Of a DNA stretch of 64,000 nt, positions 39,795-46,053 are shown piece by piece (the first letter of the stretch is position 1; each line of letters starts with the position of its first letter). This DNA is from Bordetella parapertussis. GTDB taxonomy: Bacteria > Pseudomonadota > Gammaproteobacteria > Burkholderiales > SG8-41. The notes below the pieces were generated by a model. That model was given only the letters and a program-made list of their open reading frames with translations. It searched no databases and was not told where the DNA came from. Made by a program: the position numbers and the translations under genes. The stretch is taken from the NCBI GenBank assembly GCA_945864585.1, contig CAMBCF010000001.1, forward strand, positions 3,825 to 67,824, read 5' to 3'.

Positions 39795-39876
39795 CAGGAC
39801 TGAGGATTGAGGACTGAGGACTGAGTAACCTCTGCGCAGAGGTTACTCTATCCTAAGTCCTCAGTCCTCAGTCCTG
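39795..39876. repeat. 82-bp near-perfect palindrome built of TGAGGAC heptamers, between ftsY and ftsE
   Basis: The 40-nt arms match at 36/40 positions around the central ctctgCGcagag. The ftsY stop codon (39868-39870) lies inside one arm, and the ftsE ATG lies 6 nt beyond the other. Confidence 0.9.
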
Positions 39877-40872
39877 AAGTAAAGCCGCCACAAACTCAGC
39901 CGCTTTGAACGGACGTAAATCCTCTAACCCTTCGCCCACGCCGATAAAGCGCACGGGTATCGGTAGTGCGCCCGCTTTCCGCGCGCGCACATGCGCGATG
40001 GCGGCAATCACACCCCCCTTGGCGGTGCCGTCGAGCTTGGTCAACACCAGACCGGTGACGCCCAGCGTGTCATCAAACGCTTTCACCTGCGCCAGCGCGT
40101 TCTGGCCGTTGTTGGCGTCGAGCACGATCAGTATCTCGTGCGGCGCGCCGGGCAGCGCTTTGTCGATAACGCGCTTCACCTTTTTTATTTCATCCATCAG
40201 ATTCAGTTGCGTCGGCAGGCGTCCTGCGGTATCCGCCAGCACCACGTCGATACCGCGCGCCACCGCCGCATGCATCGCGTCAAACATCACCGCCGCTGCG
40301 TCACCCGAGGCCTGGCTGATGACCGCGACGTTGTTGCGTTCGCCCCACGCCATCAATTGTTCGCGCGCCGCCGCGCGAAAGGTGTCGCCTGCCGCGAGCA
40401 ACACTTTTTTGCCCTGCGCCTGATAGTAGTGCGCGAGCTTGCCTATCGAGGTGGTTTTACCGGCGCCGTTCACCCCCGCCAGCATGATGACAAATGGCTT
40501 GTGCGTGCCCACATCCAGCGGCTGCTCTATGGGCTTTAGCATCGCGGTGAGGTTTTCCGCCAGCGCCTGTTTGAGTTGCACGGCGTCGGTATAGCGTTCG
40601 CGCCGCGCTTGCGCGCGCAGGGCGTCTATCAGGAAAGCGGTGGCTGTCACGCCTACGTCGGCGGACAGCAGCACCGTTTCGAGTTCGAGGTAAAACGCCT
40701 CGTCGAGCTTGCGCCCCGCGCCAAACAGCCCGGCGACCTGTGCGCCGAGTTTTTCGCGCGTTTTTGCAAGCCCCGACTTCAGCCGCGTGAGCCAGCCGCC
40801 GGAAGGCGTGCCGGCTTCGCCAGCAACCGCGGGCGCCGCATCTTTGTCTTTGGATTTGAGGAAACCAAACAT
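39868..40872 (-). CDS. ftsY: Signal recognition particle receptor FtsY
   Basis: MFGFLKSKDKD..., GVNGAGKTTSIGKLA, DTAGRL, TKLDGTAKGG. This is only the 3-prime 1005 nt of the 949-aa track ORF. Confidence 0.93.
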   Translation of the reverse strand: MFGFLKSKDKDAAPAVAGEAGTPSGGWLTRLKSGLAKTREKLGAQVAGLFGAGRKLDEAFYLELETVLLSADVGVTATAFLIDALRAQARRERYTDAVQLKQALAENLTAMLKPIEQPLDVGTHKPFVIMLAGVNGAGKTTSIGKLAHYYQAQGKKVLLAAGDTFRAAAREQLMAWGERNNVAVISQASGDAAAVMFDAMHAAVARGIDVVLADTAGRLPTQLNLMDEIKKVKRVIDKALPGAPHEILIVLDANNGQNALAQVKAFDDTLGVTGLVLTKLDGTAKGGVIAAIAHVRARKAGALPIPVRFIGVGEGLEDLRPFKAAEFVAALLQD

Positions 40873-40983
40873 CGGAAGTCGTGTCAGAAGCGAAGTCGGG
40901 CGCCAAGAGGTGTTACTCGGCGCGCTGTAATTGGATACAATTCTACCCGAAACATTTTGCAGGTCTCTCCCCCGGTGGTGCTT

Positions 40984-42393
40984 ATGTTGAATAATCTGAA
41001 TAAATGGATGGCGCGGCATGTCGCGCTCGGCGTGGTTGCGTTTTGCGTGCAGGCGGGGCTGCCAGCCACGGTGCACGCTGCCGACGCCAGCGTGGGTGAA
41101 CACGTTCTCTCCAACGGCATGCGCGTGATCGTCAAGACCGACCGCCGTGCGCCGGTGGTGGTGTCTATGGTTTGGTACAAGGTGGGCAGTGTGGACGAGG
41201 TGAACGGCGTCACCGGCGTCGCGCATGTGCTTGAGCACATGATGTTCAAGGGTACCAAAACCAATCCCAAGGCGGATTTTTCCAAACTGGTGGCGGCGGT
41301 GGGCGGGCGCGACAACGCGTTTACCGGCCGCGATTACACCGGCTATTTTCAGACGGTGCAAAAATCGCAATTGCCGCTGATGCTCAGGATGGAGGCCGAT
41401 CGCATGGTCAACACCCTGATCACGCAGGAGGAATTCAGCAAGGAAATCAAAGTGGTGATGGAAGAGCGGCGCATGCGCACCGACGACCGCGCACGTTCCG
41501 TGGTGTATGAGCAATTGATGGCGACGGCTTTGCGTGCGCATCCCTACCGCGCGCCGGTGGTGGGCTGGATGAGCGACCTGCAAAGCATGAACGCCGAAGA
41601 CGCGCGCGCCTTCTATGAAAAATGGTACGCGCCCAACAACGCCACGCTGGTGGTGGTGGGCGACGTGTCGCATGACGAGGTGTTCAGGCTGGCGCAGGAA
41701 CATTTCGGGCCGCACAAAATCAAAACCTTGCCGCAGCGTAAACCGCAGGACGAGCCGCCGCAGACCGGCATCCGCCGCATCACCGTCAAAGCCCCCGCCG
41801 AACAGCCGTATTTTTTGATGGCGTACCGCGCGCCCAAACTGCTGGACCCCGAAAAAGACTGGGAGCCGTACGCACTCGACATGCTGGCCAGCGTGCTCGA
41901 CGGCAACGGCGCGTCGCGCTTCAGCCGCGAACTCATACGCGGCACACAAATCGCCAGCAGCGTGGATGCCAGCTACGATGGCGTGGGCCGCGGCCCGGCG
42001 TTCTTTTATTTTTCGGGTGTGCCCACCTCGGGCAAAACGCTGGCAGAACTGGAGCAGGCGGTGCGCGGCGAAGTCAAAAAAATCATCGACGACGGCGTCA
42101 CCGAAGATGAACTCAAGCGCATCAAGGCCCAGGTCATCGCCTCGCGCGTGTATGAACGCGATTCCATGTTTTTCCAGGCGCGCCAGATAGGCTCGATGGA
42201 AACCTCGGGCTATTCGTACAAGACGATTGATCTTATGACCGAAAAATTCAAAGCCGTCACCGCCGAACAAGTGCGCGAAGTTGCGCGCAAATATTTGATC
42301 GACGATGTGTTGACCGTGGCCTATCTCGATCCACAGCCGGCAGGCGAAAGAAAGCCCGCGGCGCCTACAGCCGGAGCACGTCATGCGCAGTAA
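40984..42393 (+). CDS. M16 (pitrilysin) family zinc peptidase, catalytic-type subunit
   Basis: The signal peptide and the HVLEHMMFKGT (HxxEH) motif. Start at MLNNLNKWM. Confidence 0.88.
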   Translation: MLNNLNKWMARHVALGVVAFCVQAGLPATVHAADASVGEHVLSNGMRVIVKTDRRAPVVVSMVWYKVGSVDEVNGVTGVAHVLEHMMFKGTKTNPKADFSKLVAAVGGRDNAFTGRDYTGYFQTVQKSQLPLMLRMEADRMVNTLITQEEFSKEIKVVMEERRMRTDDRARSVVYEQLMATALRAHPYRAPVVGWMSDLQSMNAEDARAFYEKWYAPNNATLVVVGDVSHDEVFRLAQEHFGPHKIKTLPQRKPQDEPPQTGIRRITVKAPAEQPYFLMAYRAPKLLDPEKDWEPYALDMLASVLDGNGASRFSRELIRGTQIASSVDASYDGVGRGPAFFYFSGVPTSGKTLAELEQAVRGEVKKIIDDGVTEDELKRIKAQVIASRVYERDSMFFQARQIGSMETSGYSYKTIDLMTEKFKAVTAEQVREVARKYLIDDVLTVAYLDPQPAGERKPAAPTAGARHAQ

Positions 42394-43720
42394 GTTATTG
42401 TTTTTATTAATTATTCTTGTTATTCCAGGCGCAGCGCAGGCCATTCTGCCGATCCAGCATTGGCAAACGGCCAATGGCGCACGCGTATATTTCGTCGCAA
42501 ACCGCGATCTGCCGATGCTCGATCTGAGCATCGATTTCGCTGCCGGCTCGGGCTTCGACCGCAGCGAAAAACCCGGCGTCGCGAGCATGACCAACCGCGT
42601 CATGCGCCTCGGCGCCGAGGGCATGACCGAAGACGAAATCGCCAGCAAAACCGCTGACGTGGGTGCGGGGATTTCAGGGCGTTTTGACAGCGACCGCGCG
42701 GGCCTCTCCCTGCGCACGCTGTCGAGCCGCGCGGAGCGCGAGCAGGCGCTGCAGGTCTACACGCGCATTTTGCACAAGCCGCTGTTTCCGCAACCTGCGT
42801 TTGAGCGTGAAAAAACGCGGCTCATCGGCGCGCTCAAGGAATCTGATATTCAGCCGGGCACCATAGCGGGACTGACGTTTAACCGCTTGATGTATAGCGC
42901 GCATCCCTACGGACTGCGTGCGTCGGGCGACGTTGAATCGGTGGGCAAAATTACCCGCGACGATCTTACTGCGTTTTACCGGCGTCACTACGTTGCGCGC
43001 AACGCCGTAATCGCCATCATGGGCGACGTTTCGCGTGATGAGGCCAACGCCATTGCCGAGCGCATCACCGCGGGTCTGCCCCAGCCGGACGGGCGTGTAG
43101 CGCCGGTGCTGCCGCCGGTGGAAGCGCAAGCGCAAAAGGTAACGCGCCTGATCCCGCATCACGCGTCGCAAAGCCACATCCTCATCGGCGCCATCGGCAT
43201 TGCGCGCAATGACCCGGATTATTTTCCCTTGTTCGTCGGCAACTACGTGCTGGGCGGCGGCGGATTTGCCTCGCGCATCAACGAAGAAGTGCGGCAAAAG
43301 CGCGGCCTCGCCTATTCGGCGTACAGTTATTTTTCGCCGTTGGCGCAAAAAGGCTCGTTCGTCATCGGCATGCAGACGCGCAAGGATCAGGCGCAGGAAG
43401 CGCTCGATGTCACGCTTAAAACCCTGCGCGATTTTGTGGCGCATGGCCCGACCGCGAAAGAACTGCAGGACGCCAAGGCCAACCTCATCGGCGGCTTTCC
43501 GTTGCGCATCGACAACAACCGCAAGATTCATGAATATCTGGGCGTGATCGGTTTCTACAATCTGCCGCTGAAGTATCTGGATGAATTTACCGGCAACATC
43601 GAGCGCGTAACCGCCGCCGACATCAAGCGCGCCTTTGCCGCGCGCATAGACCCCGACAAGCTGATCACGGTGGTGGTGGGTGCTGAAGGCGCTGAAAAAG
43701 CGGCAGCCGCGCCGAAATAA
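42383..43720 (+). CDS. M16 family peptidase-like protein (no HxxEH; non-catalytic partner)
   Basis: The M16 fold and length, with signal peptide MRSKLLFLLIILVIPGAAQA. It overlaps the upstream gene by 11 nt. Confidence 0.85.
   Translation: MRSKLLFLLIILVIPGAAQAILPIQHWQTANGARVYFVANRDLPMLDLSIDFAAGSGFDRSEKPGVASMTNRVMRLGAEGMTEDEIASKTADVGAGISGRFDSDRAGLSLRTLSSRAEREQALQVYTRILHKPLFPQPAFEREKTRLIGALKESDIQPGTIAGLTFNRLMYSAHPYGLRASGDVESVGKITRDDLTAFYRRHYVARNAVIAIMGDVSRDEANAIAERITAGLPQPDGRVAPVLPPVEAQAQKVTRLIPHHASQSHILIGAIGIARNDPDYFPLFVGNYVLGGGGFASRINEEVRQKRGLAYSAYSYFSPLAQKGSFVIGMQTRKDQAQEALDVTLKTLRDFVAHGPTAKELQDAKANLIGGFPLRIDNNRKIHEYLGVIGFYNLPLKYLDEFTGNIERVTAADIKRAFAARIDPDKLITVVVGAEGAEKAAAAPK
42391..42410 (+). 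promoter_or_regulatory. AT-rich box copy 5 (TAAGTTATTGTTTTTATTAA)
   Basis: Its TAA is the stop of the first M16 gene. The rest encodes KLLFLLI of the second gene's signal peptide. Confidence 0.5.
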
Positions 43721-43739: not shown

Positions 43740-45059
<1,320 letters not shown>

Positions 45060-45106
45060 TATAATTATGGGGCAAGAAGAACGCAGCCCGGTAAAAGTAA
45101 CGCCCT

Positions 45107-45676
45107 ATGAGTGCGACTGAAAAAGCCACGGACTCAATGCTAACCCGCGAAACGATACTTCGTGGGTTGCAGGCGTTGTCTGACGCATTGGAAAAACACG
45201 GCGTGACGGGTGAAGTTTGCCTGTTTGGCGGCACCGTCATGGTGCTGGCTTTTAGCGCGCGGCTGATGACGAAAGATGTGGATGCGCTATTCCAACCCAC
45301 CCGGACCATTCGCGAGCTCGCCCGCCGTATCGCAACGGAGCAACACCTGCCTGCCGATTGGCTCAATGATGGTGTCAAGGGTTATATATCAGCTCGCCAC
45401 GAGATCACAGCAGGAAATCTCCCCCAATTTACGCATCTGCGTTTAACCATGCCAGTGCCGGAGTACCTGCTTGCAATGAAATGTATGGCTGCCCGCATCG
45501 GCACGGCTGTGGGTGAACCGACAGATGTCGCCGATATAGTGTTTCTGATCCGCCATCTGAAACTTACATCCGCGCACGCAGTGATAGAGGGCGTAGCACG
45601 TTACTATCCCGCCAATCGCATTCCGTTGAAAACGCAGTATCTGGTGGAAGGGTTGTTCGACGAGGGGAAGGTATGA
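45107..45676 (+). CDS. Minimal nucleotidyltransferase-fold protein (DUF6036/AbiEii-like)
   Basis: The CLFGGTVMVLAFSARLMTKDVDALF motif (G-G...D-x-D NTase pattern), then ...DWLND... and ...YLLAMKCMAAR....D..DI. No annotated function known to me. Confidence 0.6.
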   Translation: MSATEKATDSMLTRETILRGLQALSDALEKHGVTGEVCLFGGTVMVLAFSARLMTKDVDALFQPTRTIRELARRIATEQHLPADWLNDGVKGYISARHEITAGNLPQFTHLRLTMPVPEYLLAMKCMAARIGTAVGEPTDVADIVFLIRHLKLTSAHAVIEGVARYYPANRIPLKTQYLVEGLFDEGKV

Positions 45677-46053
45677 GACCCAGTACCCTGCTGCAAGTCG
45701 CACAACGCGCGCATGATGGCGATGACTTCGACCGCTGCCTGGCCAATTTTCTCGATGCGTTTTACGCCGTGCCCAATGCGGAGGCGTTGTCGCCGGAACC
45801 GGCTCTGTTAGCGCCCACGCTGGGTGACCTGGGCCATGTGCAGGATGCATATCTCGCGGCAACGGCTGAGCACCTGGCTTGCCATTACGGCTTTGCCGTG
45901 CCCGCCTGGGTTGTGGCGGATGAACGCAAATTGCAGCGCCCGTGGTTTGCCTCGCAACTGGCGTCTTTGCGCGCGGTATTGCTTTTGGAAAGCCCCGTAG
46001 CGTTTCGTTCGCGCAATATTTTCATCAGTGAGAACGCCCTCTCACGCGCCTAA
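45673..46053 (+). CDS. Hypothetical protein, translationally coupled partner of the NTase
   Basis: Its ATG overlaps the NTase stop (ATGA). 126 aa, with coding-like composition. I recognise no family or motif. Confidence 0.5.
   Translation: MRPSTLLQVAQRAHDGDDFDRCLANFLDAFYAVPNAEALSPEPALLAPTLGDLGHVQDAYLAATAEHLACHYGFAVPAWVVADERKLQRPWFASQLASLRAVLLLESPVAFRSRNIFISENALSRA

Follow-up and report, generated by a model that had tools for sequence, protein, structure and literature searches.

Nucleotidyltransferase (NTase) toxins of the MenT and AbiEii type have recently come to be understood as inhibitors of translation. The layout of the MntA-HepT system is also established, with the NTase gene first and overlapping the gene of an all-alpha protein of ~125 aa. 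MenT enzymes add nucleotides to tRNA 3' ends, which blocks charging (PMC7450476), and AbiEii-family NTases are phage-defence toxins (PMC11375011). The antitoxins of MenT and AbiEii have been described as three unrelated families, and in MenA1/MenT1, MenA3/MenT3 and AbiEi/AbiEii the binding of the antitoxin leads to Ser/Thr auto-phosphorylation of the toxin (PMC11375011). Here, we analysed two overlapping genes, A and B, in a stretch of 64,000 nucleotides (the window) from contig CAMBCF010000001.1 of assembly GCA_945864585.1, which is titled Bordetella parapertussis. An initial annotation of this DNA had described the genes as an uncharacterised two-gene cassette and a candidate toxin-antitoxin (TA) or defence module. 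Our comparisons make it probable that A and B form a chromosomal TA module related to MenAT and AbiE, in which A is most likely the toxin and B the antitoxin. The underlying principle, an NTase TA system of the MenAT/AbiE type, is already known; the B domain and the pairing of A with B are new.

Gene A (45107-45676, + strand) encodes a minimal NTase of 189 aa assigned to the DUF6036/DUF2204/AbiEii-MenT group, the proposed toxin. Gene B (45673-46053, + strand) encodes an all-alpha protein of 126 aa, the proposed antitoxin and a candidate NTase-binding domain. The two open reading frames (ORFs) share an ATGA at 45673-45676, in which the stop codon of A overlaps the start codon of B, and the coordinates given for this overlap by the initial annotation were confirmed, as were its other readings of the sequence. 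The coupling junction as a whole (45662-45676, + strand) includes, within the last codons of A (E-E-G-K), a GAGGGG that serves as the Shine-Dalgarno sequence of B.

Homologues were collected in two surveys. A B-centred scan, with one genome per species, returned 158 stretches; 80 loci were kept and 78 of them could be assessed. All 80 come from metagenome-assembled genomes (MAGs), mostly of Verrucomicrobiota, and the remaining record titles name Beta-, Gamma- and Deltaproteobacteria, Planctomycetes, Acidobacteriota, Gemmatimonadota, Hydrogenedentota and Abditibacteriaceae. These taxon names are the titles of the records, some of them plainly mislabelled, and are not to be trusted. Implausible titles for lake and soil MAGs ('Bordetella parapertussis', 'Akkermansia muciniphila', 'Bifidobacterium sp.') were seen at loci L008, L009, L018, L026, L028, L047 and others; L008, the nearest relative of the window, with flanking proteins 89-95% identical, is itself titled Bordetella parapertussis. 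An A-centred scan of metagenomes returned at least 574 stretches and provided 75 loci with sequence downstream of A.

An intact A adjoined B in 52 of the 78 assessable B-centred loci, and 50 of these 52 intact pairs keep the ATGA junction. At the 75 A-centred loci, B was intact in 63, cut by the contig end in 11, frameshifted in one and absent in none. Distances between A sequences co-vary with those between B sequences (r = 0.75, Mantel p = 0.001). Strong purifying selection acts on A and B, with ratios of nonsynonymous to synonymous substitution rates of ~0.11 for A and ~0.13 for B at synonymous sites that are near saturation. The module is self-contained, with no third gene, and the genes around it differ from locus to locus; 337 of 383 neighbour clusters are singletons. 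Fusions of the two proteins exist in both orders, A-B in P0249 and B-A in P0371 and in a 359-aa mycobacterial plasmid protein (L176). Collectively, these results show that the linkage of A and B is obligate. The families comprise 2,388 (A) and 1,700 (B) clusters at 90% identity, span at least eight phyla, and consist of members that are all named 'hypothetical' proteins. As in TA systems, these are two small, co-directional, coupled genes that move as a unit and are patchily distributed. The initial annotation had named loss of synteny among homologues as an observation that would speak against a module; synteny was strongly conserved in both surveys (52/78 and 75/75), and none of the contrary observations that we looked for was made.

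The two genes are lost unequally. An intact B lacked A altogether in 12 of the 78 loci and was accompanied by a degraded A in 14 (26 of 78 together), whereas B beside an intact A was frameshifted in one of 64 loci and never absent (Fisher p = 5e-7). Four independent in-frame deletions were found in A, covering residues 53-97 in L021, 44-130 in L035, 50-143 in L065 and 54-128 in L067. They remove the catalytic loop, and K125 too in three of the four, while the start of A, its 3' end and the coupling junction are kept. Since frameshifts could be assembly errors, these in-frame deletions show that the degradation of A extends beyond frameshifts. At L016, which comes from a relative of the window's organism and shares its rsmD-coaD-fdx context, A is reduced to E-E-G-K-L-stop and B is intact. 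A megaplasmid of Methylorubrum extorquens AM1 carries a clear B homologue of 153 aa (probability 99.8%). The ORF before it is weakly A-like (hhalign probability 32%), is without a T-K-D-x-D loop, carries Q where A has K125, and looks decayed, truncated and catalytically dead. At this locus (L178:1755-2962; NC_012811.1, ~643.8-645.1 kb) B overlaps the stop codon of the upstream ORF, and the PLSDB gene table, which holds one feature for the whole record, has none for either ORF. Orphan copies of B are as well conserved as paired ones, with 46-49 of the 49 conserved sites retained. Loss of this one-sided kind is expected if A is harmful without B and B is useful, or at least harmless, alone.

Protein A itself is only weakly recognised by existing family models. 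It scored 15.7 bits against DUF6036 (PF19502), below the cut-off of 23.6, was sub-threshold against DUF2204 (PF09970), matched the PADLOC AbiEii model weakly (E 0.013), and gave no match to AbiEii (PF08843) at E <= 1. The sub-threshold DUF6036 and DUF2204 matches were repeated in the same N-terminal region by 46 of 47 family members (best DUF6036 E 3.7e-4). NTases encoded beside distant B members share 38-41% identity with A (hhalign probability 99.9%, E 1e-31 to 1e-36) and pass the cut-offs of AbiEii (25.0 and 22.7 bits versus 22.5), DUF6036 (23.9 versus 23.6) or DUF2204 (27.3 versus 20.3). The DUF6036 cut-off was passed by the homologues in L168 (31.2 bits), L169 (23.9) and L177 (29.1), and plasmid homologues with 33-39% identity to A are named 'DUF6036 family nucleotidyltransferase' by NCBI. 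Among the homologues the best PADLOC E-value was 9e-4, and no PADLOC model was passed convincingly. The earlier description of A as a DUF6036-like minimal NTase is thus upheld through homologues that pass the cut-offs, and membership of A in DUF6036 itself is transitive only, via L168, L169 and L177. Together, these comparisons show A to be, at the level of sequence, a divergent member of the DUF6036/DUF2204/AbiEii NTase group with conserved catalytic residues.

Residues G41, G42, R52, T55, D57, D59, W85, N87, E119, Y120, K125, R130, D140 and D143 are invariant in A, including the copies on actinobacterial plasmids. NTase motifs I and II have been defined as hG[GS] and [DE]x[DE] (PMC7450476). 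Motif I corresponds to G41-G42 (codons 45227-45232, + strand), invariant in alignments A1, A4 and A6. The metal-binding D-x-D of motif II lies in T55-K56-D57-V58-D59 (codons 45269-45283, + strand), which is invariant except in the L021 deletion allele. Close and distant members alike have F40-G41-G42 and D57-V58-D59 as invariant residues, bearing out across the family the G-G ... D-x-D pattern that had first been read from the window. The codons of E119-R130 (45461-45496, + strand) encode EYLLAMKCMAAR, a motif IV-like segment with K125 as candidate catalytic residue and with E119, Y120, K125 and R130 invariant; this is the region that matches the Pfam AbiEii model in the homologues. Two further invariant acidic residues are encoded at D140-D143 (45524-45535, + strand).

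The sole viral relative of A, at L168:4012-5654 on the 244-kb IMG/VR contig IMGVR_UViG_3300045988_184161, is a DUF6036 NTase of 249 aa. It is encoded two genes downstream of HAD_SAK_2, a 'Swiss Army Knife' RNA-repair HAD domain (E 6e-20), and the 136-aa ORF between them is not B-like. This arrangement hints at an RNA-end-modifying or repair context for the phage-borne enzyme.

Among proteins of known structure, the top match of a broadened A profile against 177,635 PDB sequences was MenT1 (8AN4/8AN5), with a marginal E of 0.048. MenA1-MenT1 (Rv0078B/Rv0078A of Mycobacterium tuberculosis) is a minimal member of the MenAT/DUF1814 group, and its toxin chain of 196 aa is close in length to the 189 aa of A. 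The A segment 'EYLLAMKCMAAR...D' aligns to 'HLIAMKLLAR...D' of MenT1 and places K125 on chain position 136. With an assumed offset of one residue between chain and published numbering, and at this marginal E-value, K125 would correspond to MenT1 K137 and D140 to D152, the toxin-specific catalytic Lys and Asp of the C-terminal part, which in MenT3 are K189 and D211. MenT1 and A also share a [ST]-[RK]-D-x-D active-site loop. T55 stands at -2 from D57, just as T39 precedes D41 in MenT1 (T39-R40-D41) and S78 precedes D80 in MenT3; the numbering and roles of the MenT residues (MenT1 T39, K137 and D152; MenT3 S78, K189 and D211) are taken from PMC11375011 and PMC7450476. In AbiEii and MenT3 the Ser/Thr before the catalytic Asp is the auto-phosphorylation site, and from the motif alone we infer that the conserved T55 would be the equivalent of the MenT phosphoacceptor. 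Unlike MenT1, A scores on the DUF6036 and DUF2204 models and not on DUF1814. The AbiEi-AbiEii system of Streptococcus agalactiae and MenA3-MenT3 (COG5340 + DUF1814) resemble the present pair as two-gene NTase toxin systems. Homologues of A pass the Pfam AbiEii threshold, although A covers only about two-thirds of that model (189 aa versus 238 positions).

Protein B had no match in Pfam, NCBIfam or PADLOC, and neither a narrow nor a broad B profile found anything credible among PDB sequences. Four of the six PDB matches listed for the broad profile were to eS19 (best E 0.015, local), pairing B residues ~44-87 (alignment A5; motif DAYLAAvAEhLA....P.W) with the N-terminus of eukaryotic eS19 from several organisms; this match was judged to be probably due to chance. 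Every Foldseek match of the B model in PDB and BFVD had E > 1. In agreement with the initial annotation, B has no helix-turn-helix (HTH) and no HEPN Rx4-6H motif; its family has no conserved His, and no HEPN match was obtained in Pfam, PDB or Foldseek. There was no match to AbiEi in Pfam, NCBIfam or PADLOC, and none to 6Y8Q by sequence or fold. B is like MenA1 in being small and helical, without a DNA-binding domain and without transcriptional autoregulation (for MenA1, PMC11375011). It differs from MenA1, a protein of 7.4 kDa (PMC11375011), in its length of 126 aa, and the two have no similarity of sequence or fold. AbiEi-type and MenA1-type identities for B were therefore rejected for want of any similarity. 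The suggestion that the pair is an undescribed variant of the NTase TA systems is supported.

The structural model of B is all-alpha and confident over the first 85 residues (predicted local distance difference test score, pLDDT, ~90), with values of 54-57 in residues 91-110 and under 50 in residues 114-126. The C-terminal third (PWFAS...LLLESPxAFRSRNxFxSxNALxR) is the most conserved part of the protein, yet has the lowest model confidence. Within it, the codons of E106-R125 (ESPvAFRSRNiFiSeNALsR; 45988-46047, + strand) encode the most conserved stretch of the B superfamily, and ESPxAFRRRxIFV recurs in distant members. A segment that is conserved yet modelled with low confidence is typical of one that folds on a partner, which makes the C-terminal tail of B a candidate partner-binding segment.

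An exhaustive profile search placed 1,628 representative clusters at 50% identity in the B family. In P0321, P0336 and P0347 the B domain is preceded by an N-terminal Xre-type HTH that is nearest to the HTH of the HipB/Y4mF antitoxins, and in P0370 by a winged HTH (wHTH). The genes of such HTH-B proteins directly precede those of A-like NTases, and in L169 the two overlap by 4 bp. In the standard layout, an antitoxin combines a DNA-binding head with a domain that binds the partner, and its gene lies just ahead of that of the enzyme under its control; the B domain is therefore antitoxin-like in these relatives. These searches show B to belong to what appears to be a novel family, with an antitoxin-like domain architecture in its relatives. 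As in abiE, the gene for the DNA-binding antitoxin of the sister clades is upstream of, and overlaps, the NTase gene. Unlike in AbiEi, the HTH of the sister clades is mostly Xre-type, and the B domain takes the place of the AbiEi C-terminal domain as the presumed neutraliser. The DNA-binding antitoxin feature is present in the sister clades (Xre-HTH or wHTH + B domain) and absent in the window, where B, unlike AbiEi, has no DNA-binding domain and is encoded downstream of A. The window clade thus appears to have dropped the DNA-binding head and inverted the gene order; its toxin-first order also sets it apart from MenA1-MenT1. The initial annotation had held that neither gene order nor partner fits a known architecture. 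This stands for the partner, which is neither HEPN nor an AbiEi wHTH protein, but not for the order, which is specific to the window clade, the sister clades having the canonical order with B or HTH-B first.

Distant B members also occur on plasmids. A 437-kb plasmid of Mycobacterium intracellulare encodes a B-like 'hypothetical' protein of 114 aa (hhalign probability 97%) that precedes a DUF6036 NTase, with a RES-Xre pair on one side of the two genes and a PIN nuclease on the other. The fused B-A gene of pFLAC0070_2 follows ParD/ParE at a distance of ~1.8 kb, and two hypothetical genes lie in this interval. A different partner is seen in P0351 (384 aa), in which an N-terminal B domain is fused to a C-terminal HAD hydrolase (HAD_2, E 1.6e-14), neither an NTase nor a DNA-binding domain. 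At the HTH-B and NTase loci retrieved with P0447 (L171-L174:2463-2729), a weak DDE_Tnp_1_2 fragment lies ~270 bp upstream of the pair, which suggests transposon-associated mobility in this sister clade. To our knowledge, DUF6036 and DUF2204 are families without an assigned function, and pairing of these NTases with a B-domain protein is recorded in no domain library that we searched. A literature search found no paper mentioning DUF6036 and a single one for DUF2204, which is on an unrelated topic, and a search for AbiEii, nucleotidyltransferase and Xre returned no title or abstract describing the A-B pairing.

The genomic surroundings of the pair are those of a chromosomal resident. Recurrent neighbours at the surveyed loci are housekeeping genes, including UbiD (15 loci), GatB (7), Mur ligase (5) and similar genes, and no defence genes recur among them. 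Among 2.9 million viral contigs B had no relative and A one distant relative. No association with defence islands or phages was found, and the 'defence module' of the initial annotation, for which PADLOC offers only weak AbiEii matches, was not borne out. In 100 of 130 loci the upstream neighbour has the same orientation as the pair, and in L005 A starts 12 bp after ubiD; the co-orientation and the short gap suggest that the pair is often without a promoter of its own and rides on a host transcript. The coaD-fdx site of the window is common to four related Burkholderiales MAGs. CoaD of L018 is 73% identical to that of the window, and its A and B are 75% identical each; in L082 the values are 78% for both CoaD and A. 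Because the module diverges in step with its flanks at a shared site, it is not a recent insertion, contrary to the description of the cassette as 'inserted', but an old, vertically inherited resident. The cassette has a GC content of 0.55-0.60, near that of its flanks, and a foreign origin by composition was rejected.

Collectively, a TA module of A and B is the reading that best fits these results, as the initial annotation had proposed, and the polarity with A as toxin and B as antitoxin is the most likely one on comparative grounds. Toxicity of A is inferred from the analogy with MenT and AbiEii, with indirect support from its one-sided loss. Several points weigh against this reading. The Pfam and PADLOC scores of A itself are sub-threshold. 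The match to MenT1 has a marginal E-value (0.048) and extends over the C-terminal half of A only, and an N-terminal-only A profile, with which an alignment of T55 to MenT1 T39 was attempted, does not retrieve MenT1. The AlphaFold2 model of A, with a pLDDT of 67 and values under 50 in the catalytic loop, is too poor for its Foldseek matches, such as ANT(2'') and AbiEi at E ~1, to have any meaning. The window clade shows no sign of autoregulation: neither a DNA-binding domain in B nor an operator was found. With its fixed sites by housekeeping genes and its flank-like divergence, the module is more stable than a typical selfish TA system. Both surveys favour well-conserved copies of the query protein, and the collections that they cover differ. 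Finally, the one-sided loss of A also fits an enzyme that is merely useless, and not harmful, without B.

This last point leads to the strongest of the rival explanations, a non-toxic regulatory or enzymatic pair, which we regard as unlikely. Here B would be the functional partner, A would modify it, for example by nucleotidylating its C-terminal tail, or the two would be subunits of one enzyme, and A would be lost neutrally. The one-sided loss fits such a pair equally well. Long vertical residence at fixed sites (coaD-fdx, ubiD, gatB-mur ligase) with flank-like divergence, strong purifying selection on both genes, the lack of a defence or phage context, and fusions in both orders, as for subunits of one machine, are all in keeping with it, and the full conservation of orphan B implies a function without a cis-encoded A. 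However, the only recognisable relatives of A are toxin NTases, namely AbiEii for its homologues and MenT1 as the top match in PDB. An HTH-B gene upstream of an NTase gene is the classic antitoxin layout, and the pair occurs inside plasmid TA clusters and is patchily distributed across phyla. The repeated in-frame excision of the catalytic core, moreover, looks like selection against the activity of A and less like decay at random.

A dedicated role in anti-phage abortive infection, similar to that of AbiE, overlaps with the TA reading as a possible role of the same mechanism, and we consider it improbable. The membership of phage-defence toxins in the AbiEii family (PMC11375011), the weak PADLOC AbiEii matches and the patchy phyletic spread agree with such a role. 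Against it stand the housekeeping neighbours without recurring defence genes, the long life of the module at fixed chromosomal sites, the lack of a convincing PADLOC pass even for the best homologue (E 9e-4), and the near absence from viral contigs, where B was not found and A has one distant relative. The reverse polarity of the type VII system MntA-HepT, in which B would be toxic and the NTase A, as antitoxin, would nucleotidylate and so inactivate it, is very improbable and was rejected on motif, family and orphan-B evidence: the NTase-first order, the overlapping genes and the small all-alpha partner of ~126 aa do resemble MntA-HepT, and the Arg-rich conserved tail of B could in principle be catalytic, but B is not a HEPN protein and has no Rx4-6H motif, its domain is fused to antitoxin-like Xre and wHTH heads, A resembles MenT1 and AbiEii rather than MntA, and an intact B without a working A, which should be lethal if B were the toxin, was found in 26 of 78 loci. 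On comparative grounds it is thus the NTase that appears to be harmful.

If A and B form a TA module with A as the toxin, the following mechanism can be proposed. By analogy with MenT and AbiEii, A would act as a MenT1-like NTase that extends tRNA 3' ends with nucleotides and so blocks charging and translation; tRNA as the target is a tentative assignment, which we hold to be possible. B would be translated by coupling on the same mRNA, in step with A, and would bind A, probably via its conserved C-terminal tail, to keep it inactive. Neutralisation might occur by sequestration, by induced auto-phosphorylation of T55 beside the catalytic D57, or by both. In the auto-phosphorylation route B would displace the active-site loop, as in MenA1/MenT1, MenA3/MenT3 and AbiEi/AbiEii; this route is drawn from analogy and is somewhat doubtful for the present pair. 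The window clade would have an antitoxin without a DNA-binding head in a toxin-first arrangement, usually carried on the transcript of an upstream housekeeping gene.

A broader and more speculative proposal, which we think rather unlikely to hold in full, is that the B domain is a widespread neutraliser of MenT-like (DUF6036/DUF2204) toxins that acts via Thr auto-phosphorylation, and that the pair in the window has been domesticated as a translation brake. This proposal includes the lack of an own promoter, co-transcription with housekeeping operons, vertical inheritance at family level or above, and a role that is neither selfish nor defensive. With three unrelated families of MenA antitoxins already described, B would add a fourth family of NTase-toxin antitoxins, one that is present in no domain library searched. 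The pairing, if true, would also tie the uncharacterised DUF6036/DUF2204 NTases to the MenT/AbiEii toxin class. The family is large, phylogenetically broad and experimentally tractable, and has plasmid-borne members in clinically relevant mycobacteria (M. intracellulare, M. avium and M. kansasii). It would lend itself to testing how general antitoxin-induced auto-phosphorylation is among NTase toxins, and would offer a case of TA domestication beside core genes. The B-like gene on the M. extorquens AM1 megaplasmid is a handy locus in a model organism for the study of orphan B.

Upstream of A, an AT-rich spacer of 63 bp (45044-45106, + strand) extends from the ferredoxin stop codon to the A start codon. 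The AT-rich spacer that the initial annotation had seen before A is real, and a perfect TATAAT (45060-45065) lies inside the palindrome ATAGTTATATAATTAT (45053-45068). A simple sigma-70 scan called no promoter in this spacer, and no operator was identified at the locus, the TATAAT in the palindrome being the sole candidate seen; the element may be a weak promoter or an operator. The placement of the pair between an rsmD-coaD-ferredoxin block and mutM-side genes, as first annotated, is matched in the near-identical contigs L001 and L002. In these contigs the upstream flank encodes an RsmD-like protein (Cons_hypoth95), CoaD (CTP_transf_like) and a 4Fe-4S ferredoxin, and the downstream flank encodes Amidohydro_2, SDR and MutM proteins. 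Elsewhere in the window, a 949-aa ORF on the - strand (39868-42717) has a C-terminal part corresponding to the FtsY/SRP54 GTPase and an N-terminal part that overlaps a + strand M16 peptidase gene. This ORF is artificially long because the first in-frame start was used for it; in L001, FtsY is called at 335 aa.

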